64,000 nucleotides of DNA from positions 128,216,001 through 128,280,000 of the forward strand of contig OX597815.1 of the NCBI GenBank assembly GCA_951406725.2, in the 5' to 3' direction. Below are positions 6,809 to 51,749 of this stretch, piece after piece (position 1 is the first letter of the stretch; every line of letters starts with the position of its first letter). The notes under the pieces were generated by a model. The model had not been told where the DNA came from. It was given only the letters and a program-made list of their open reading frames with translations, and did not search any database. Source of the stretch: Octopus vulgaris. Lineage: Eukaryota. A program made the translations under genes and the position numbers.

Positions 6809-7857
6809 TAACTATGTGAATATGCATAATTGTTGTTTGTTTTGTTGTTTCAATTTTTTTTCTTTTAAGATATAGATGAACACTAAGCAATGTGAAGTAA
6901 ACCCAACCATTGCCAAAAAATAAGCATCAATCAATTATAATTAATAACAGTAAATAATAATGTAATTCATAAAGCAGATTAAATTTGTATAAATAAAATA
7001 TATAAACAGAAATATAAATACATACACAATTAAAAAAATCTCAAAATTACACATGATTAGTGCAAGCACTTATAGGCTATGTACTTGCAAACTAATTCTA
7101 TTATGAAAGGCTAATGGTCTAAAAGACGTTTTAGCCATTATGAACTCATTCAGCTTAGTTAATATAAAATATATTTAAATTGAAGTTATACCTGTTGTCA
7201 TTTTCATTGATGCATAAATATCTTATCAAGGATCAGCTATAACATGTGTTACCCAAAATATAGTCCCTCATATTTTCAATTAAAAAATTTGTAAAATTAT
7301 ATGCAATTATTTCTTTAAAGACAGCTTAATACTTAAAGTAATAATGAAAAAACAAAAATTTAATTGCATTAATATTTATTTGGAACCAAAAACTGTTTGT
7401 AAATTTCTTACAGCTTTAACGTGACAGCAATAATTTCAGATTTTTTTTACTTGCCACATGTGAAAAGTATTAAATTTATAAAGTAATTTATGGAAAAAAA
7501 TTCAAGCAAAAAAAAAAAAAGAACCCCACAAAATCCTAAATAGACACTCAAGTATGAAATGTCATGTTTCACATAAAAAAAAAAAAAAACAGGTAAATGT
7601 GGATGAAAATTCAGGTGAGTAAATATCTTAAGATAAATCATATAAGCCCAATTTTTTATCAAAAAAATAGAAACTTTTTAAAAATTCCAAATTTTTTAAA
7701 GATATTAAAGTAGAAAGCTGAAATATCCAGAAATATAAATTTCTCTCTTTTTTTTTTTAATTACATTTTCCAGCAAATATCCAAATTTATTCCATATAGC
7801 TAATAAACAATTAACTCTCAGATGTCAAATAAGCACAAGAAACAAAATTTATCTTAC

Positions 7858-7922
7858 CTGTTGATAAGGGTTATAAGCTTGTGCCTGAGGTGGTTGTTGC
7901 TGTTGTGGTGGTTGTTGTTGTG

Positions 7923-7954
<32 letters not shown>

Positions 7955-8174
7955 GGGTTTGCTGGATAATTAAAATTTTGAATTGGTTGATTGGTTTGAT
8001 TAGTAGAACCAAAAGGACTAAGAGCTGAAGATGGTTGCTGTTGGGGAAATTGCTGTCCTGGCATCGTTGGTCCAGAAAACTGCTGCTGTGGTGGTAGTTG
8101 TTGTTGTTGTTGTTGTTGTTGTTGCTGTGGTTGTGAAGGTTGCAGTTGTTGGGTTGATTGCTGTGCTTGATAAC
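7858..8174 (-). CDS. TFG: TFG coding exon 6 (P/Q-rich low-complexity region with two Q10 tracts)
   Basis: 317 nt, attattag|GT TAT CAA GCA...TAT CAA CAG|GTAAGA; open frame compatible with a phase-1 join; composition typical of the TFG PQ-rich tail. Assigned by frame and composition, not by strong homology. Confidence 0.82.
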
Positions 8175-8266
8175 CTAATAATAGAAGTATGAATCACAAG
8201 GGTAGTATTAGAAATCTTTTGTCAAAACTTGAACTTAAGAAAAACAACAAATGACAAAAAAATTAA

Positions 8267-14617: not shown

Positions 14618-16352
14618 CAGTACAAAGAAATGTAATAATGAATAATCCCTTAACTTATAAAGTACTCACCTTCTTTAGTAAATTTATAATCTGCTCAACA
14701 CTTTCCGTCATTTTTTATGTGCTTTCACTCACATTGGAAACTAAGCAGATATTCAAGTTTTCTTGAATTGACTGACATAATCAGATCAATGAGATGAACA
14801 TGCAGCAATAATTATCAAGTTAAAAATTATGAACTAAAGAATGGCCCAGATAAACAAGAGTTTTCAGTTTAATTCAGCATAGTATATCACCTATCTATGT
14901 CCTGCCTCTCACAAAATGATTCACTATTAGTGCTGGTCAAAGCATATTATAGGAAGTAGTTAGGGCTGTGAATAGAGTGAAAGAGAAAGACAAGGATGAA
15001 AACACTATAGAGCAAAGAGCTTTTGAAGTTCAATGCCCAGAGTTATAGCAGATGAAATATGGCTGCCTAACATGACTAACCAATGTCTTTCAGCCAGAAA
15101 TATACAAGATTCAATAGCTGAATGAAATATTCATGAATAGGTCTTGAAACTATAAAACCAAGATGAGCTAAGAGGGAAGCCACAATGTGATCACTTGAAA
15201 TGTTAGAAATAGTGGCTAAATCACCCTCAAATCACACCCTACTCCCTTAAAAAAATAATTTTACCAATAAACATATTTTTAAACAGTTTAAGCCATTTCT
15301 CTATTATCAAGGAATGTTTGAGAATGAAAGTATTAACTTTAAATCTCCATGTCTTCCTTAATGCTAATACTACTTTTTAAATAAGTTCATTAAGGTAGGA
15401 AAATAATGTGTTATGTGTGTATATAAATTTGAGAGTAATTATCATGAGTACTGATGGAAATATTTTTGAATACCAAATGTTAGTAATACTTTATTATGCA
15501 TATGATAAAGTATGGTGCCTGATGACAACAGAAACTGAACAATTCAAAATTGCAGATATTTACTAAAACATAACACAACAGATGAATTTATGGACCTTAT
15601 GGTTTCTCTGTCAACACCGAGTCTTTCTTAAAAATCACAACACAATGAACATAGCAACATTTAATCAGATATCTTTTTTGTCAATAGGAAACATCTGGCT
15701 TTATAATCATGCCATTTTAAACAATAACCAAAAACAATGGAAGAGATTAGTAAAAAATAAACAAAAGAAAGTTGAGTAATTTATACACTAGAGAAGAGAT
15801 AAAGCAAAATCATGGAAACCATTGCATTTAGTATTTGTACTGAGTTTAGACAGACAAAAAGCCTTATCTTTATACTCTGCTATGTTACACCTTATAAATT
15901 ATATTCAAAGCTACCTTGTATATTTTCTGGTGAATTTATTCTAGAACAAAAATCCTCCCAACTCCAAAACATGAATCTAAAAAATACAGATCCTTAAATT
16001 TTAAAGGTTTTCTACTTTACTTAAAATTCATTCAACCAATCTCTCCAATTTTTGTTAATTTACCAATTTGAATCAAGCTTAAAATGCTTACACATGATTA
16101 TATGTTCCAAGGTACACTTCTCTGTCAATAGTTTAAATATATCCCTATTAAGTAAAAAGTGTCCAAAAAGAAAAAGAAAAATCTGAAAAATACTTAATAT
16201 TTTACTTTACCATCCACTGTAAGGAATTTATGTAAACACTTGTTTAGTAATAATACAAAATAAAATAAAAATCTATTAAGCAGCCGGGGGTTAAAAAGTT
16301 ATTCAAACAGCCACCTGAACTTGCCAGCATTCATAGTAACAGTAACACTCAC

Positions 16353-16718
16353 CTGGTTGATGCACTCCAGTATTAGGTGGGAATGTTTGGGGAGCTGGAT
16401 ATCTCATTGTTGGAGTCATCTGCTGGCCTGGTTGAAGAGGACCAACATTAACTGTTCGCTGTGCTTGTGGGTTTACATGATACTGTGGGTGGCCAGCAAC
16501 ATTGCTAGCAGGTATTTGCTGATTAAGAGAAAGACCTGGTGCTGGGATGGGTGAGGGAGTAGGTTGCTGATGTGAAAGTTGCTGGCGCTGTTGTAAATGA
16601 TATTGGTTGCTTGCCGAAGAACTAATACTTGATACACTGTCTGGGCTTCCGGGACGATCCGGAGCAGTGATGGCAGTTGGCACTGGTGTCTGAGCAGAGC
16701 TTTCATTTGGTGTGGGCC
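16353..16718 (-). CDS. TFG: TFG coding exon 5 (S/P/Q-rich)
   Basis: 366 nt, catatag|GG...CCAG|GTGAGT; encodes (G)PTPNESSAQTPVPTAITAPDRPGSPDSVSSISSSASNQ...GVHQP; DRPGSPDSVSS resembles TFG DRSGTPDSIASS; phase 1-1. Confidence 0.88.
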
Positions 16719-19499
16719 CTATATGATGGACAGGGAAACATAATCGAATCTAATGATATACTTATCAGCAGCAACAGCTGCATGTAGCCTTAGAAAGACT
16801 ATAGCTTATGTTGCAAGTAAACCCCAAAAGTAACTTAAGCATAAAGAAAACTATACAGAACCTTGATTTATTTTCTTTTTAATCTGAAATCTTTTGTAAG
16901 ATCTAATGAATTCTTTTTAGATAATCCATTAGATTAATTGAAATTTTGAATTTTAATAATTAAATTAAAATTAGCACCAAAATAGGTATTGAAAATGTTA
17001 TAAATACCCAAATAGCTACAGATACCAAGAAAAGCTGAGAAGAATGTTAAATAATGCTTAAACTAGAACTTAAAATAATCCTACATATAAAAAAACAAAA
17101 AAAAAAAAAAACGGTTTGAAATGATACTTTATAATGTTCTTTTCAGTAAGCCTCAACTGTATAATAATCTGTCTGATTTAGTCTATAAACATGTAATAAA
17201 TATATACAACTAAGATTGAATATTTAAATTAAATTCAAAATGTCGCCTGTCAAGAAGCAATTTATCAACTGTTATTCTATTCAGTGCAGTTTATTACACT
17301 TATACATAAGCACATATACAACAGACACACACCACGAACACTCAAGAAATGTTTGGCTCACAATAGTCTACAAAACTGACCATTGAAATATATCAAGTAA
17401 AGCTTTCTCTTTTTCTTTTCTTCTCATGATAAAAAATGGAGAGAAAAAGTAACATATTCCTTCTCATCTAGCAAGAGAATGGAAAACAATAAAAGAAAAG
17501 AACAACTTATAAAAATAAATTATAAACCACCCACTTAGGCTAAGCAGGTGTCTTAATAGTTAAGTACTATCTCAGAAAATACATGGATAACTGCCAAACA
17601 GTTGCAGTTTCAAACCTAGTCAGGGAAGGATTTCAAGGAAAAAAATTGCAATAAAAAAATTAAATACCAATAGTACAGCATGATGGTTGGGATAGAACTT
17701 AACTTGAAATATGGAATCTTGAGTCATCATCAAGCATAACTGGCTATTTTTACCACCTGGATATGCTCATCAGAATTGACTCAGGTGAGAGGCTAACAGA
17801 CAGCAACATTGCATTACAAGTTAAAACTGGTTTCTACAATGGTTTTACTACATTCAGTGGTTCACAGCAAGAGTGCAGCAGTGCATCTTGGAACTAACCT
17901 CAGTTGATAAAGTCTATACAAATGTAATTGTAATTTCTTCCTTTACTGGAGGAATAAACCATATGGATTTGCTAAGGATGTAAATTTAGAAAAAAATGCA
18001 TTTTTATATCTATTATAATTTATTGTATGTACACATATACATACTATATACTTACACACAAAGTGAGTACAAAATATTTTTAAGCATCTAAATAATGATT
18101 TAAAATAATTTACTAAAATTATCTTCACTTAAATGCATGGACATCCAAGTGAGAAATTTGTTATGGATAGCATCTATCTTAGTGGTAGCATCTACACACC
18201 TGTTTCTAACTAAGCCAAAAGTGCTACAGTTGCTAGACTAAATAAATATCAATTTTTAACCAACATAATAAATACATAAACAATAGCTTGTTTGTACATC
18301 AGCATTAAGAAATATATTAATTCCAAGTATATTTCTGTTATTTCCTAATCAAAACATCAGCTAATGCGAAAAAAAAAGTATTGATTAGGCAGAAACTAAA
18401 TACTTATAAATATGGTTTATAGCACACTGAACTGATTTCAATGTATTGTTTGCATTTATTTTATCAAATCCAAATGAAAGAAAAGCACAGTTTGGCCCTA
18501 GTGACATTGCAACTCAGATCAATGAGGGAAACACTGAACTTTGGATATCAAAAGGAATCCAAGCTGGTTTTCAACATCCCATGCCATCTCCACAATCCTA
18601 TATGCTATAAAAACAATTTGTCTTGTATACATCCATCCAGACATGCATTTCAGCATGCTCTACTCCTGGAAAGATTGTTGAGGTAGAACCTTCAACTAAT
18701 TCATTCATAGGGTTCTATCAAAAGTAACAGGTCACTTCCCTGCTAGATTCCAAGCATCACCAAGACTATGGAAATTATCCAACCATCTCACTCCTGGTCT
18801 ATTCCTAGCTCTCCTGCCAGCTGGCTTGGCTAGAAGAATCTGTCTTGTATACATCAATTAACAATATTCATCTAATTATGCTCCAGACATTCAGAATTAC
18901 TTCATCCCTTTGCTGCATATGATATGTTAGATGTTCCTGAGTGGATTTCATCATTATAGATCATTATTATTGAAATCAAAAATGGTTTTAGACAAAATTC
19001 AGATTCTGTTTTCATTTTCAAGTATAAGAACTTCGAAGTAGAACAAATACACAGAAATGTAAGCAGCAGGGAAACTGGCATAACTACATTTATATCATTG
19101 TAAACTCTTGCCAAGAAGATAACTCCTTTCATTTAAATAACTGAATTACTAATTTTAATTAGAAAGTATAAATGAATCTATTAGATAAATAAAACAGCTA
19201 GGAACCTAAAGTAAAATTTTGTTTAATTTTAATTCAGGGTATTTCAAGAATATAAATTATGTCTAAGGTTATGATTAATTGTGACCATAATTTGTTTGGA
19301 CTGTTAATCTCATCTTTAGATATATAAAATGTTTAACCCTTTAGCTTTTAAACCAGCCACATCTAACCCAAATATTCTACATGCTTTATGTTTAAACCAG
19401 CCAGATCTAGCCTGTCATCCCTACCCTACAATGTTATTTTAAAAAGATATTTTCACATCATCAAAATCTCAAAGCTACATGATAATGCATAATTCAAAA

Positions 19500-27600: not shown

Positions 27601-29049
27601 TCACTGCTCTAAATGGGCCTGCAAAGACCAAAGGCATTACCCCTACTATATCAAATATATAAAGAATAGTCAGAATAATGATTTCAAATTTTGGCACCAG
27701 GCCAGCAATTTTAGTGGGAGGGATTAGTCAAAAAGCAAAGTTGACCATGGTGAAATTTGAGCTTAAAATGCAGCATGCTCGAAGAAATACTGCAAAGCAT
27801 TTTCCCCAACATGAAAACCAAAGTTCATGCTACTATGTACCCGTGGAAACGAAGGCACATAGCTTAATTGAATCATATCTTTTCCTTTTATAATTATATA
27901 TGGAGAGCATGGGATGGTTGAATTTAGTTAAAAAGTGACAACTGGTAATCTGTTACTAAAACTCTACTGTCAAGCCCAAGACACTTTCAAACAATCCAAT
28001 CCACATCAGTGAAAATAGAGTAAGAACAGCTTGTAGGATGTTGTAAACAGTGATAGCACTGTCCTTCTATCATACTTAAACCTCTCATTACCCAGCATAA
28101 AGCCACCTCCCTCAATGCCCTCTCAGTTGAGAGAGTCTTGTCTTGCGAGATACTGAGTGACTTCACTGGTGCCAGTGCTATGCACAAAGCACCCAGTACA
28201 TTTAGTTAAGTAATTGGCATTAGGAAGGGCATCCAACTGTAGAAATCATGCCAAAGTAGATATTGTAGCTTGGCACAGTTCTCTGGCTCACCAGCTCCTA
28301 TCAAACCATCCAACTCATGCCAGCATGAAAACAGATATATGATGAAGAACTGGATCCCACTGGTCAAATTTGAAAAACAATAGATCTGATGGCTCTTGTT
28401 GAATACCTTTAATAATATAAATGTCAAAGTAATTGATTTGCTCTTTTAACAGATAAAATACAGACTTACACATAATTTAAAATTTTCATTTTCCACTGAA
28501 AATAACAAATCTAAAAATAGTACTACAATTTGTAACTATTCACACTACTATTGCAACTCTGATTTAGCTTTATATTTCATAAATAGAAATTTTTTATCAT
28601 TTAGTTTAATGATAAGGGCAGAGCCCAAAGATCTCTCAGAGTGCAAACAATTGCAATCAGAAGAGTCTTAATAGAATAATGTTTACCATAACATTTGCAG
28701 ATAAATGGTTGCAGTGAGTAGTAAAACAACCCCTGTGAAGGATAGTGTTTGGAGTGGAGTTTAGTAAGTAAAATACAGGAAAGACGACAAAAAAAAGAGT
28801 TGGGTGGGTGAGTTTATATGGAAGGTGTTTTTTGGGTTTTTTTTCAGATAAGAAACTGCTTGATTAAACAAGGCAAGGACTCAGAATATGAACATAGCTT
28901 GATAGGTGTGAATGATTGAAGAGTATTGGGAAGTGAAGGCTTATCAAACAAGAATCCAAACATAAAACAAACAAGAGCAAAGTTAATATCTGCTATCTAA
29001 CATAACCTATTTTAAGCAATATGCAGCAAAAAAGAAATTATCACCTTAC

Positions 29050-29242
29050 CTTCATCTTTGTATTTGATTGTAATATCATCATTTGTGGCTAGCTTTCCTC
29101 GATACACTCGCTGCATCATTAGAACTAATTCGTCATATGTAATGTCCACATTGTGAATTGGGATTCGACGAATATCATCTCCTAATTGCACTTTGATAAT
29201 TAACTTGCCAGAAAGATCCATCTGTTGGTCGTAGTTATTCAT
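29050..29242 (-). CDS. TFG: TFG first coding exon (PB1 domain N-part)
   Basis: Translates [64 protein letters not shown], closely matching the TFG N-terminus (human ..[38 protein letters not shown]..). Acceptor ttgcag at 29250-29249 leaves 6 nt of UTR before the ATG; donor G|GTAAGG at 29049; phase 1. Confidence 0.96.
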
Positions 29243-35650: not shown

Positions 35651-35860
35651 ATATCTGAGCAGTTTATGAGCATTTCAACTCCTACCTATGACTGTATATC
35701 ACATCACATTTGAATTATTCATTTTTCTGTCATTCTTCTGGAGATCCCATTGCACCTTTTGTGTATCCATTGTTCACACTGATATCAAGTTGCTGCTAAT
35801 TCCTTTCCCAGATATTGGACAAAGACACTTGCTAGATGGTCTTCTGGATTTTGAAGCCTC

Positions 35861-37836
35861 GGTCAATGAGGAAACTAGGGATAGATGAATGGCTGGTGAG
35901 GACTGTGCAAGCCATGTACAGAGATGCCGTAAGTAAGGTTAGGGTTGGCAACATGTACACAGAAGAATTCAAAGTAGAGGTTGGGGTCCACCAGGGTTCA
36001 GTACTCAGCCCCCTCCTATTTATCATAGTACTCCAGGCAATTACGGAGGAATTCAAGACAGGCTGTCCCTGGGAGCTCCTCTACGCTGACGACCTTGCTC
36101 TTATTGCTGAGTCACTATCAGAACTGGAGGAGAAGTTCCAGGTGTGGAAGGAGGGTTTAGAATCAAGGGGCCTTAGAGTCAACCTAGCTAAAACCAAAGT
36201 ACTAATAAGTAGGAAGGTAGACAATCCACAAATATCTTCAGGAAGATGGCCCTGCTAGATCTGTAGAAAAGGTGTAGGTAGAAACTCTATAAGATGTACC
36301 CAGTGTAAGCTATGGACACATAAGAGGTGCAGCAATGTCAAAGGTAGGCTAACTGGGAAGATAGTTTTTGTATGTGGCAGATGCTCGGGAGCATTAACCT
36401 CCGAAAATCTGCAGAAAACAACTTCCGTCACTTTCCAGGGGGAAAAACTAGAAGTAGTTGATAGCTTCCGTTATCTAGGTGACCAAGTCAGTAGTGGGGG
36501 TGGGTGCGCTGAAAGTGTAACTGCTAGAATAAGAATAGCCTGGGCAAAGTTTAGGGAGCTCTTACCTCTGCTGGTGACAAAAGGCCTCTCGCTCAGAGTA
36601 AAAGGCAGACTGTATGATGCGTGTGTACGAACAGCCATGCTACATGGCAGCGAAACATGGGCCGTGACTGCTGAGGACATGCGTAAGCTCGTGAGGAATG
36701 AAGCCAGTATGCTCCGATGGATGTGTAATGTCAGTGTACATACTCGACAGAGCGTTAGCACCTTGAGAGAAATGTTGTACCTAAGAAGCATCAGTTGTGG
36801 TGTGCAAGAGAGACGATTGCGCTGGTATGGTCATGTGGCGAGAATGGATGAAGATAGGTGTGTGAGAAAGTGCCAATCCCTAGCAGTTGAGGGAACCCGT
36901 GGAAGAGGTAGACCCAGGAAAACCTGGGACGAGGTGGTGAAGCACGACCTTCGAACTTTAGGCCTCACTGAGGAAATGACCAGCGACCGAGACCTTTGGA
37001 AATATTCTGTACGTGAGAAGACCAGGCAGGACAAGTGAGCCCAGCCCACTTATGAATGCCTTTCTTCCCTTGGACACAAAGACCTGTTGAGGCAAGCGAA
37101 GTCGATATAGAACCTCATCCGACGACAGACACCCATGCCAACCCCCCATGCTTGCGAAGACATGTTGGGGCAAGCGAAACCGAATTGAACCAGCCAGGAT
37201 CCCTGGCCTGGTGGTACGTAAAAAGCACTATCCGACTCGTGGCCGTGGCACGTAAAATACTCCAATGCGACCGTACAACAGGCACCCATGCCAACCCCCT
37301 TTGCTTGTGAAGACATGTTGGGGCAAGCGAAATCGAAATCGAATTGAACCAGCCAGGATCCCTGGTCTGGTGGTACGTAAGCACTATCCGACTCGTGGCC
37401 GTGGCACGTAAAATACTCCAATGCGACCGTACGACAGGCACCCATGCCAACCCCTTTGCTTGTGAAGACATGTTGGGGCAAGCGAAATCGAAATCGAATT
37501 GAACCAGCCAGGATCCCTGGTCTGGTGGTACGTAAAAAGCACTATCCGACTCGTGGCCGATGCCAGCACCGCCTCGACTGGCTTCCGTGCCGGTGGCACA
37601 TAAAATACACCAATCTGACCGTGGCCGTTGCCAGCCTCGCCTGGCACCTGTGCAGGTGGCACGTAAAAAGCACCCACTACACTCACGGAGTGGTTGGCGT
37701 TAGGAAGGGCATCCAACTGTAGAAACATTGCCAGATTAGACTGGAGCCTGGTGCAGCCTTCTGGCTTCCCAGAACCCCGGTCGAACCGTCCAACCCATGC
37801 TAGCATGGAGAACGGACGTTAAACGATGATGATGAT
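35861..37836 (+). mobile_element. RTE-clade LINE, 5'-truncated (RT C-half, PHD insert, thumb, 3'UTR, (GAT)n tail)
   Basis: GVHQGSVLSPLLF, LLYADDLAL, FRYLG, HGSETW, RRLRWYGHVARM and RGRGRPRKTW motifs lie in one frame interrupted only by TAG at 36256-36258; stop at 37038; tail GACGTTAAACGATGATGATGAT. Confidence 0.95.
37130..37560 (+). repeat. ~155-bp tandem repeat (about 2.8 units) in the LINE 3'UTR
   Basis: CACCCATGCCAACCCC starts at 37130, 37283 and 37439. Confidence 0.9.
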
Positions 37837-37982
37837 GTGTGCACACATTTTACTGAAGCTGTATAAAACTTCACAGAGTTCCATGTAATTGATCTTCACC
37901 TTTTTTGCACCTACATGCTTGTATGTGTGTATATATACACATATAAACACACACACACACACACACATATATTACACATTGA

Positions 37983-46918: not shown

Positions 46919-47731
46919 CTATAGACTTTGCAGACGAAAAACAAAAATTGGAAGAGAAGAAATGGCAAAAACAAGAGAGATAATTAGATGAAAGGATTAA
47001 GTTATTGCGATTTAAGATAAGTTTGTTAGTGGAGAAAATTTTGGAGAATGATGATGATGCCACTCAGCCTAATTTAAATCATGTTGGGGTACCTTTTACT
47101 AATGAAATATTACCTGAAATATAATTTAAGACAATGAGGAATTAGAAATATAAGAGCAGTGTATTTCTTAATTAAATTACATGGCAAGAATAAAAGTGAA
47201 AGGTAACTTATGGTTCTAGGAGTTAATCTAATGAATTTCAGAACCAAAATTGAGTTTATATCACTATATACTGATTTTGAAAATTACCTTTCTAATATGC
47301 TACAATAATGGATCTAAAAATTAAATAAAACCAAAACATATAAATACAAACAAGATAAAACGGCTCTTTTTAACCCTAAGTAATATGTAATGTTTCGTGT
47401 TATTTTAAGAAAATCTTGTGACAACACATATCGGATTTGGTACGTCCCACTAAATTTGTCTGAGTCAGGTTAAATTAGTGGACTTGATTTTTTAAAAATA
47501 AGTTAATTATTTGTTAATAATATCAGTAATTATCTTCAAATTTAAATAATTTATAGCATATAAACAAATTCTAAATAAATATTGGTTCTAATATTATAAG
47601 CATCATCTTACAAGCTCAGGCACTTACAGGAACACACACGCAAATTGAATAACACAGTTACTTTATTTTTTTAAATATATCAAAATAACGTTTGAAATGG
47701 TACTTGTCAATTGTCGTGGTCCCGGTTTTGC

Positions 47732-47838
47732 ACACGCGAATTCGCGCGCGCGCGCGCGTCAGACGTAGGTACTCGATACTCGAGATCCTACGAGGTGACT
47801 TGCGCATGCGCAGTGCAGAATTCGCGCGTGCGCGTTAA
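47732..47838. promoter_or_regulatory. CpG-dense subterminal module with (CG)8 and NRF1-type palindrome TGCGCATGCGCA (left arm; mirrored at about 50441-50547)
   Basis: Sequence ACGCGAATTCGCGCGCGCGCGCGCGTCAGACGTAGG...CCTACGAGGTGACTTGCGCATGCGCAGTGCAGAATTCGCGCG in an otherwise CpG-poor window. Regulatory function is inferred. Confidence 0.4.
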
Positions 47839-48161
47839 CCCCCTCCCCCCAAAAAAAGGTGTTGGATTTCACTAAAAATATATGTGTGTGTGTGTGTGTG
47901 TGTGTATATATAACATTTTCAATTTTACACAAAAAATTACATAGTCGCTTTCCTCGCGGATTTACAGAGAAATGAATTAATTACTATTTTACAGAATAAA
48001 ATTAATGAATTAATTATATAAATTAAATAATTCTTGAAAATTAATTAATATTAATAATATTTTTTGAACAAAGTAAATAATTTATAAAACTTGGTTAATA
48101 ATTTTTTTTACACAAACGCGAACGTATATAATTTGGTAAACTTAATGAATTAATTTCTTCT

Positions 48162-48583
48162 CATCATCATCATCGTTTAACGTCCGTTCTCCATGCCACC
48201 ATGGGTTGGACGGTTCGACCGGGGATCTGGGAAGCCAGAAGGCTGCACCAGACTCCAGTCTTATCTGGCAATGTTTCTACAGCTGGATGCCCTTCCTAAC
48301 GCCAACCACTCCGAGAGTGTAGTGGGTGCTTTTTACATGCCACCCGCACAGGTGCCAGGAGAGGCTGGCAACGGCCACGGTCGGATTGGTGCCAGTCGAG
48401 GCGGCTCTGGCATCGGCCACGATTCGGATAGTGCTTTTTACGTACCACCAGTCCAGGGGTCCTGGCATTTGCCGGGTGCCACACTTGCCCCAACATGTCT
48501 TCGCAAGCAAAGGGGGTTGGCATGGGTGCCTGTCGTGGGATGAGGTTCGATATCAACTTCGCTTGCCTCAACAGGTCTTTGTG
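48162..48583 (-). mobile_element. 5'-truncated RTE LINE 3'UTR inside the left inverted arm
   Basis: Matches the 3'UTR of the LINE at 35861-37836 (CACAAAGACCTGTTGAGGCAAGCGAAG...GGACGTTAAACGATGATGATGA). Confidence 0.9.
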
Positions 48584-49660
48584 TATAAATGTATAAATTT
48601 TTCGCACTAAATTCTTTCCGTAGAATTTATAAAAAAACGCGCAAAATTATTCCGTAGACTTTATCAAATTAAAAAACGCAAAATTAATATATTTTTGAAA
48701 TTGCAAATTATTTAGAATATAAAACAAATTAAGTTAAATTTTAAAAATAAATGTCATATACTTATACTCTGTAAGGTGCTGTGTTCACACTTCAATTTAC
48801 TATTTTCTAGAAATGTTGCTTTTCTAATTGAAACAATTTTTCTCAATCTCCATTTAAAAGTCCATAATGCCTCATGAGCCATATCAAAATGAACAACTTT
48901 GAATTACCCGGTGGTGGTGGTGTGAGGTTCTAATTTTTTTCTGATCTCTCTTTGCCCCCCCTAGATGGAGGTGTGGTGGGGAGACAGATGAAAGATGTTT
49001 CATTCTCTACTATATATGTATATATATATCTATATATCTATATATATATATATATATCTATATATCTATATATATATATATATATATTTCTTAAACCTAC
49101 ACGATATAGTCTATAAATTTGGGATGTTTTTGAAAGATAATATATTTTGTCATCAGAATATATATACTTTCTCACACTACAATTAAGATATATTTATTTT
49201 AAATCGTTCATCTTTTCCCGCGACAACAAAAATTGGGCGCGAAAATTTTTCTAAATATTAGCTGAATGAACAACTGAGATAAAGAGGGGGCAAAGAGAGA
49301 TCAGAAAAAAAATTAGAACCTCACACCACCACCGGGTAATTCAAAGTTGTTCATTTTGATATGGCTCAAGAGGCATTATGGACTTTTAAATGGAGATTGA
49401 GAAAAATTGTTTCAATTAGAAAAGCAACATTTCTAGAAAATAGTAAATTGAAGTGTGAACACAGCACCTTACAGAGTATAAGTATATGACATTTATTTTT
49501 AAAATTTAACTTAATTTGTTTTATATTCTAAATAATTTGCAATTTCAAAAAATATATTAATTTTGCGTTTTTTAATTTGATAAAGTCTACGGAATAATTT
49601 TGCGCGTTTTTTTATAAATTCTACGGAAAGAATTTAGTGCGAAAAATTTATACATTTATA

Positions 49661-50083
49661 CACAAAGACCTGTTGAGGCAAGCGAAGTTGATATCGAACC
49701 TCATCCCACGACAGGCACCCATGCCAACCCCCTTTGCTTGCGAAGACATGTTGGGGCAAGTGTGGCACCCGGCAAATGCCAGGACCCCTGGACTGGTGGT
49801 ACGTAAAAAGCACTATCCGAATCGTGGCCGATGCCAGAGCCGCCTCGACTGGCACCAATCCGACCGTGGCCGTTGCCAGCCTCTCCTGGCACCTGTGCGG
49901 GTGGCATGTAAAAAGCACCCACTACACTCTCGGAGTGGTTGGCGTTAGGAAGGGCATCCAGCTGTAGAAACATTGCCAGATAAGACTGGAGTCTGGTGCA
50001 GCCTTCTGGCTTCCCAGATCCCCGGTCGAACCGTCCAACCCATGCTGGCATGGAGAACGGACGTTAAACGATGATGATGATGA
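49661..50083 (+). mobile_element. 5'-truncated RTE LINE 3'UTR inside the right inverted arm (mirror copy)
   Basis: Reverse complement of 48162-48583 with the same junctions; the ORF track shows identical mirrored spurious ORFs, with one substitution (MPPW vs MPAW). Confidence 0.9.
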
Positions 50084-51749
50084 GAAGAAATTAATTCATT
50101 AAGTTTACCAAATTATTATACGTCTGTAAAAAAAAAAAAGTTTCACAAATTATATACGTTCGCGTTTGTGTAAAAAAAATTATTAACCAAGTTTTATAAA
50201 TTATTTACTTTGTTCAAAAAATATTATTAATATTAATTAATTTTCAAGAATTATTTAATTTATATAATTAATTCATTAATTTTATTCTGTAAAATAGTAA
50301 TTAATTCATTTCTCTGTAAATCCGCGAGGAAAGCGACTATGTAATTTTTTGTGTAAAATTGAAAATGTTATATATACACACACACACACACACACATATA
50401 TTTTTAGTGAAATCCAACACCTTTTTTGGGGGGGGGGGGGTTAACGCGCACGCGCGAATTCTGCACTGCGCATGCGCAAGTCACCTCGTAGGATCTCGAG
50501 TATCGAGTACCTACGTCTGACGCGCGCGCGCGCGCGAATTCGCGTGTGCAAAACCGGGACCACGACAATTGACAAGTACCGTTTGAAATTATGTAATATA
50601 TATGTAGTGGATGAAATAAAAGCAAATATTATATTTAAGTAAATATCGAGCAAACGATTAGAGCAGGTAAGAAGAAATATTAATAAGTCATTCTGTATCG
50701 CATACATAGTAGTCGACTTCAGACAAAGGCGATTTACAGAAAGAATATGAATAATTTTGCTTTTACAAACAGATATATGAAATGCATTTTACTCGGCGAA
50801 GACAATTTTACTGATAAAATAATATTTATTATTATTATTGAGGAAAAAAGGAGAGAAAAAAGCGATATACAAGTACCTAGAAAAGATGTAATAGGAAAGC
50901 TCTCAGTGACAAACAGCAGATGAGTCAATGTCGGGATGTGGCAAGGTCTCTTACAACGTTCACAAATCTTTAGGCCCCCACACTGCCTTCATAAATAGCT
51001 TGTTACTAATAATTAAAGTAACATTTTTCATGCCGTTGTTAACTAAGTTAGCTAGTTAAGCGTGCTATCGGCAATTTAATTTTTTTAGCTTATAAATATC
51101 TACCGAAATTTTTTTTTTAAGTGTGAGTGAACATGTATTTTTTTTAATTGATAAATAAAAATTAGAGCAGCAGTTTTCGTAAATGTCTAACACAGCAAGA
51201 TTTGGCATTTACCATGGCCTTTCCGTTAACCCATACTTGAAAAAAAAATAAATGCTTAATAATCTATTTATATCTTATTAGCGATGTTATATATTTTTTC
51301 CTTTGGGAACTATACATATTTAAGGAATTCGGGATGTTTAACGGGAACATTTATCGCTTTACCAATTCTTGTTCACTGATTCAATTCCATTGATTTGTCA
51401 ACAAAAGAAAATATCTGTGAAGCACTGAAGCTTAAATGATTTAACAAAGAAAGATAAAATACGTATCAGACGAAAAATAACATTTTTTGAAGCCTTATTT
51501 CGGGCAAAATTCTCGACGAATGAATTCCACAATCTGATTTCGTTTCTCAGTTGTCAAAAGTTCACTCAACTAAAGCTTGCTTGCAATTACCATTGAGAAA
51601 AACATAAATGCCATAACTTTCTCCTTTTCCTCTTCTCAAACCTGAGTTATGGTATATAATAAGGAACCATTATTGATGCCATATGCGTTCACTGTATGAA
51701 GTTGAGCTTAGCAATAAAAACAGTACATATTTATTCAGTGAAAGCTACA

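Follow-up and report, generated by a model that had tools for sequence, protein, structure and literature searches.

A 2.9-kb palindromic element with Merlin ends and probable arm-to-arm gene conversion in Octopus vulgaris

A giant palindrome in a 64,000-nucleotide stretch of Octopus vulgaris DNA (the window; contig OX597815.1, positions 128,216,001 to 128,280,000) is very probably a recent gene-less member of a multi-copy palindromic family with Merlin ends, one that would be moved by a Merlin transposase encoded elsewhere and whose two arms would be kept alike by gene conversion between them.

The element measures 2882 bp (47699-50580), with GG...CC termini, and its features are collected in Table 1. 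Re-measurement returned the arm and spacer sizes of the preliminary description at the same coordinates, together with the GG...CC ends and the exact 9-bp duplication GTTTGAAAT on both flanks; the inverted repeat, put at about 89% of the element before, came to 88.7% by arm alignment. The two arms were found to differ by 4 substitutions and 5 indels (37, 3, 2, 1 and 1 bp). Such differences had been read as an argument against an assembly artefact, and that reading stood; however, the large indel is 37 bp rather than about 35 bp, and the differences are not all local, the 37-bp deletion of the window copy being common to three other copies (left arm of L049 and L051, right arm of L050). The internal tandem content of the terminal inverted repeats (TIRs) amounts to one 2 x 34-bp pair (48616-48686 in the left arm) and short motifs, and AATGAATTAATT repeats are also present. 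The modular internal repeats reported earlier are thus there, but those of the TTCCGTAGA type were taken over from a second Merlin family, in which they are subterminal repeats. Judged from the modules, the length of the arms is attributable to captured sequence and probably not to Foldback-type arrays. An in-silico fold of the inner 846 nt predicted the expected hairpin (z -48), which says nothing about the cell.

Table 1. Features of the palindromic element in the window
Feature	Coordinates	Strand	Basis or remark
Left target-site duplication (TSD), 9 bp	47690..47698	.	Exact GTTTGAAAT; present once where other runs have the empty site
Right TSD, 9 bp	50581..50589	.	Exact GTTTGAAAT
Left arm, long TIR, 1261 bp	47699..48959	+	Arm alignment
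Right arm, long TIR, 1295 bp	49286..50580	-	Arm alignment
Spacer, 326 bp, with (TA)n tract 49010-49087	48960..49285	+	
37 bp kept in right arm, deleted in left arm, between short direct repeats	50117..50153	.	
Merlin family-A end, left	47699..48089	+	Homologue of the end that follows the transposase ORFs on C11, C9 and C14 (79-83%, blastn with gaps)
Merlin family-A end, right copy	50192..50580	-	
LINE 3' UTR and (GAT)n tail, left-arm copy	48162..48585	-	Aligns to 37061-37837, right behind the RVT_1 ORF
LINE 3' UTR and tail, right-arm copy	49660..50082	+	
Second-family Merlin remnant (GGCAC ends), deleted, left-arm copy	48612..48922	-	Holds the 34-bp tandem pair and transposase codons 48782-48843
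Second-family Merlin remnant, right-arm copy	49326..49632	+	Transposase codons 49400-49461, 87-94% DNA identity

By alignment, each arm reads as a mosaic of a Merlin end (family A), a LINE 3' tail and the remnant of a second Merlin family. The captured LINE is an abundant one and presumably belongs to the RTE clade. A LINE 3' half with RVT_1 was also observed at 35836-37837 of the window, where its 3' UTR carries a 155-bp tandem triplication; UTRs of this family recur very often in the window. The second-family remnant is multiply deleted, retains 62 bp of transposase codons and has GGCAC-ended relatives at L068 and L070. All three modules of the right arm are mirrored by the left arm with identical junctions, and the cargo would therefore have entered once and then been copied. 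At L212, the whole spacer stands in front of a family-A transposase, and an inverted copy of the transposase 3' flank (87.5% over 88 bp) stands in front of the spacer; this single locus suggests that the parent of the family already had long TIRs, with the inverted 3' flank at its left end. The origin of the palindrome by simple duplication of the right end is weakened by the same locus.

Elsewhere in the window, a weak PB1 exon (29045-29197, minus strand, E 0.0011) and two Q/P-rich frames on the minus strand (7849-8193 and 16303-16749) were found, which suggest the exons of one gene, with the PB1 exon about 18.5 kb from the element; we take this gene to be TFG-like. No indication of a host function for the element was obtained from the present data.

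When the terminal 152 bp were used as query, 276 candidates were returned, and the best 40, which were scored, proved 97-100% identical. The exact terminal 27-mer occurs 107 times in the genome (reversed control 0), and a spacer 31-mer has 80 exact matches (control 0) and 100 within two mismatches; we estimate that about 80 dispersed relatives of the window element are present. Loci were retrieved for copy comparison in sets of 28, 39 and 20 more. The mean distance of the 45 young full-length copies from their consensus is 0.12% over the unmasked columns of the arms. Shorter derivatives with TSDs of their own were also found (L145, 1588 bp; L146, 1720 bp; L153, 1330 bp; L141, 1906 bp), the spacer is wholly or mostly lost in L031 and L148, and only one end could be recognised at 12 loci. 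The copies share A/T-rich flanks and no strict target motif. As for rearrangement between copies, no inversion pair was seen, and where TSDs matched between loci this was due to TA runs or to segmental duplication; the pairs L040/L160 and L139/L140, 12 and 20 kb apart with the same flank, are such duplicates and not independent insertions. Two further loci had unusual structures: L147:501-582 is an 82-bp perfect palindrome of two element ends only, without a TSD, and L138:501-4719 holds a young copy that has lost about 100 bp at one end, with an older relative of 1075 bp at a distance of 370 bp.

The arms were compared across the 45 young copies over 1057 unmasked columns of one assembly, and no fixed substitution separated left from right arms. 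This points to exchange between the arms, because left and right arms would otherwise form two clades. The copies carried 74 variant alleles, 53 of which were singletons on a single arm. Where an allele occurred on exactly one left and one right arm, both arms belonged to the same copy in 9 of 11 cases (three of these in L175). Alleles shared within a copy numbered 20 against a null mean of 1.14 and a maximum of 11 (0/20000 shuffled pairings), and with site 697 and L175 left out they still numbered 10 against a null mean of 0.39 and a maximum of 4. In a tree with nine older copies, the arms paired by copy in six (L195, L197, L202, L206, L207 and L208) and did not in L199, L200 and L205, and the distance within a copy was 0.49% compared with 1.09% between copies. 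The young copies differ from their oldest relatives, which are 2.2-2.5% away, by changes that were present on both arms, at the outer ends (L141) as well as the inner ends (L142), and the subfamily-diagnostic changes on both arms include a deletion of about 36 bp. Intermediate states were observed as well: at sites 11 and 31, L043 has the derived state in its left arm and the ancestral state in its right arm, and the variant at site 697 is on the left arm only in L038 and L052 and on both arms in the window copy (W), L049, L050 and L051. Within this last clade the inner markers hold their sides, and L050 alone has the 37-bp deletion on the right arm, a pattern that could be due to a crossover flipping the centre or to mis-resolved assembly. 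Arm-to-arm conversion is partial, because 53 of the 74 alleles are single-arm singletons and three of the nine older copies are unpaired.

It is conceivable, though rather unlikely, that the arms were made alike during transposition, by template switching or by hairpin mismatch repair when the donor gap was refilled, and not by repair of resting copies. The lineage-level sharing at site 697 fits either timing, but the share of private both-arm variants is greater among older copies, at 13 to 33 singletons, than the 9 to 53 counted among the young, which fits a process that continues with time. It is very unlikely that the Merlin-derived family is real and the sharing between arms an artefact, in which assembly or polishing copied bases from one arm to the other. 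The arm data do come from one assembly and not from raw reads, and the same assembly holds other large palindromes near Merlin loci (L074, L084, L085 and L090); however, single-arm differences survive about 65-230 bp from both-arm variants of the same copy (L047, L172, W and L170), the 53 singletons remain, and the subfamily-level changes are found on both arms of nearly all young copies.

The affiliation of the family was read from its ends, its spacer and its TSDs. In the excerpted text of PMC8101967, Merlin elements are given 5'-GG ends and a TSD of 8 or 9 bp, and both terminal traits were found in the window family, with 5'-GG on both ends. A PF12762 profile search of the genome gave 476 candidates, and all of the best 150, which were scored, matched (150/150). 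At L067 (C11), one of the first 30 loci, the first 391 bp of the element (83%) lie downstream of an intact 294-aa ORF and spacer sequence lies upstream of it (96% over 78 bp); the ORF matches PF12762 (DDE_Tnp_IS1595) with an E of 1.3e-19 and contains D137, D198 and E239. The loci on C9 and C14 carry broken relatives of this transposase (92-95% protein identity) in the same layout of end and spacer. Spacer positions 49069-49234 are 87-96% identical to DNA upstream of family-A transposase ORFs, and positions 48964-49057 are also found upstream of the transposase in L212. The element is assigned to Merlin because its ends and spacer match the flanks of Merlin transposase genes, in company with GG ends and 8/9-bp TSDs, and it was likely moved, by cut and paste, by a family-A Merlin enzyme.

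An autonomous family-A partner with both ends and a TSD was not found at the retrieved loci (best 133 of 1265 candidates scored). The native left end of family A was not recovered from C11, C9 and C14, which are all disrupted there, and no clear left end of the autonomous element was seen in the contigs of four runs. The intact Merlin ORF at L067:1429-2313 (G000:C11:87618522-87619406) has one end only and lies inside another repeat, and it is a candidate immobile source of the enzyme; with a blastn identity of only 83%, the end at C11 is too distant from the young end for C11 to be named as that source. No RNA run was among those listed for the flank. One run, guessed to be RNA, yielded a short spacer contig and, across the transposase, a contig of 828 bp in which 2 bases are deleted, which is too weak for expression to be claimed. 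On C14, L121:4328-5929 is a frameshifted Merlin transposase whose C-terminal part is present as four tandem repeats.

TSDs were scored in 56 two-ended elements among the window and the first 67 loci. Exact 9-bp TSDs were found in 32 and exact 8-bp TSDs in 16, one copy had its TSD in a TA run, four had a 9-mer with 1-2 mismatches and three had none. The proposal to look for duplications at the termini of other copies was thus borne out in 49 of the 56 (the TA-run copy counted in), yet at 8 or 9 bp, one third of the exact TSDs being 8 bp. The nine older full-length copies gave an exact 8-bp TSD in four, an exact 9-bp TSD in four and a near 9-bp one in the last.

Mutator/MULE TSDs are typically 9 bp or longer. 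The assignment to the Mutator/MULE superfamily in the preliminary description had to be given up, and we attach hardly any probability to a Mutator/MULE or Foldback-superfamily element. The long TIRs and the 9-bp TSD in 32 of 56 copies would suit it, and MULE domains are present in the genome (7 matches), but the TSD is 8 bp in 16 of 56 copies, and the ends, the spacer and the internal coding remnant all map to Merlin (PF12762) loci. The MULE transposase partner that had been anticipated did not appear: none of seven MULE (PF10551) loci, from 177 candidates and with 1.5 kb of flank each, matched the element at E 1e-3.

The insertion itself was seen in its empty state, as the preliminary description had proposed to look for. 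In runs X1, X4 and X8, contigs that follow the left flank up to 47697 enter the right flank at once, the last TSD position being one base different, and of an X2 contig the extension beyond 47697 alone was observed; the runs compared carry two organism labels. The insertion in the window is recent, because the empty site is present in other sequencing runs. The earlier view of a young, non-autonomous, TSD-flanked element was upheld, the element being gene-less with dispersed copies that have TSDs of their own. The TSD 9-mer alone is weak evidence because it is partly self-complementary; it is the family copies with their own TSDs that settle the insertion. A local inverted duplication flanked by a chance 9-mer, which that self-complementarity might favour and which was to be expected if no other termini and no empty allele existed, has a negligible probability in view of the 107 exact ends, the family of about 80 dispersed members that have TSDs of their own, and the runs in which the site is empty.

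We propose that a family-A Merlin lost its ORF, and that the LINE tail and the second-family remnant would have entered one arm once and been copied to the other. The transposase would bind the outer ends, so that arm length would be tolerated. The close inverted arms would serve as repair templates for each other, which would lead to conversion, and exchange between them would occasionally end in a crossover that flips the spacer. Central or one-arm deletions would give the shorter derivatives, which may still be able to jump.

A sister palindromic family was also recognised. L213:2680-5744 (G000:C2:51656679-51659743) is a 3065-bp palindrome with 1.4-kb arms (96.6%) and an 8-bp TSD; its ends, GGTAAAATTAC, are unlike those of the window family, and the two have 260 bp of spacer and inner arm in common (91-92%). 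The sequence of the L213 ends was also found close to the Merlin transposase loci L059, L079 and L097. L214 has the same GGTAAAATTAC ends and an 8-bp TSD, and L201 is a chimera in which the sister GGTAAAATTAC ends are joined to a window-family interior; L211 and L212 were also grouped with this sister family (L213, L214, L201). Further palindromes were observed at Merlin transposase loci: L084:714-3112 (2.4 kb, 97%), L085:501-2603 (820-bp arms, 100%) and L074:504-1244 (742 bp, 99.5%), and at L090:4940-7775 a 1.1-kb inverted duplication surrounds what we take to be a helicase fragment.

The window element resembles Merlin (IS1016/IS1595-related), as described in the part of PMC8101967 used here, in its 5'-GG ends, its 8/9-bp TSD and its DDE_Tnp_IS1595 partner. 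That text gives Merlin TIRs of 24-462 bp, whereas those of the element (1261-1295 bp) lie outside this range at about 2.7 times its 462-bp upper bound; the absence of an ORF, the mosaic arms with a LINE tail and the concerted evolution of the arms also set it apart. Because its TIR length exceeds the Merlin range, the element is a variant derivative of Merlin and not a typical member. Merlin is abundant in Octopus bimaculoides according to the same excerpt (191 sequences, PMC8101967), and the accessible portion of PMC13282606 gives O. vulgaris 18 Merlin families, with 28,998 bp covered by 11 recent insertions of Merlin. The window family may already be in that library or in Repbase.

The element has the Foldback-type architecture of Galileo and FB, in which very long TIRs form most of the element (88.7% here). 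In the excerpt of PMC3573991, Galileo, a foldback-like element of the P-superfamily in Drosophila, is described with TIRs that reach about 1.25 kb, with non-autonomous copies made of two TIRs, with TIRs that grow by recruitment of internal sequence and with TIR-TIR exchange proposed from structure. As far as that excerpt goes, the window family is alike in its long-TIR non-autonomous copies, in TIR growth by internal sequence and in the proposed arm exchange, and differs in that Galileo has a P-superfamily transposase whereas the ends, TSD and partner are here of the Merlin type; exchange is here counted from variants shared within copies and one apparent flip. We found no report in the literature of a foldback Merlin (Repbase and Dfam lay outside this search), nor of TIR homogenisation in DNA transposons. 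Arm-to-arm conversion occurs in Y-chromosome palindromes and flip-flop in plastid inverted repeats. The window family is like both in having close inverted arms that would be homogenised by conversion, with occasional inversion of the spacer, but its palindrome is mobile, is only 2.9 kb long and sits at dozens of independent sites of different ages.

These results would extend foldback architecture to the Merlin superfamily, and they caution that a rule of "9-bp TSD plus long TIR" misfiles elements as Mutator. More tentatively, and we hold this broader picture to be on the improbable side, a Merlin lineage may repeatedly have given rise to kilobase-long palindromes that are mobile (two families or more, which share one spacer and differ in their ends), whose arms are rewritten so often that any cargo in one arm becomes fixed in both; each jump would then plant a self-correcting 1.3-kb hairpin of LINE tail and Merlin sequence, which in any transcript that it entered would be a mobile dsRNA trigger of silencing or of A-to-I editing, and each jump would add dated, polymorphic replicates for the study of palindrome conversion. 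The exchange between TIRs of the same copy that the excerpted source proposes for Galileo can, in the present family, be backed by counts. The genome has dozens of nearly identical palindromes that differ in age, and other individuals lack at least one of them; with this set, conversion in an animal germline would become measurable in its rate, its timing and the length of its tracts.
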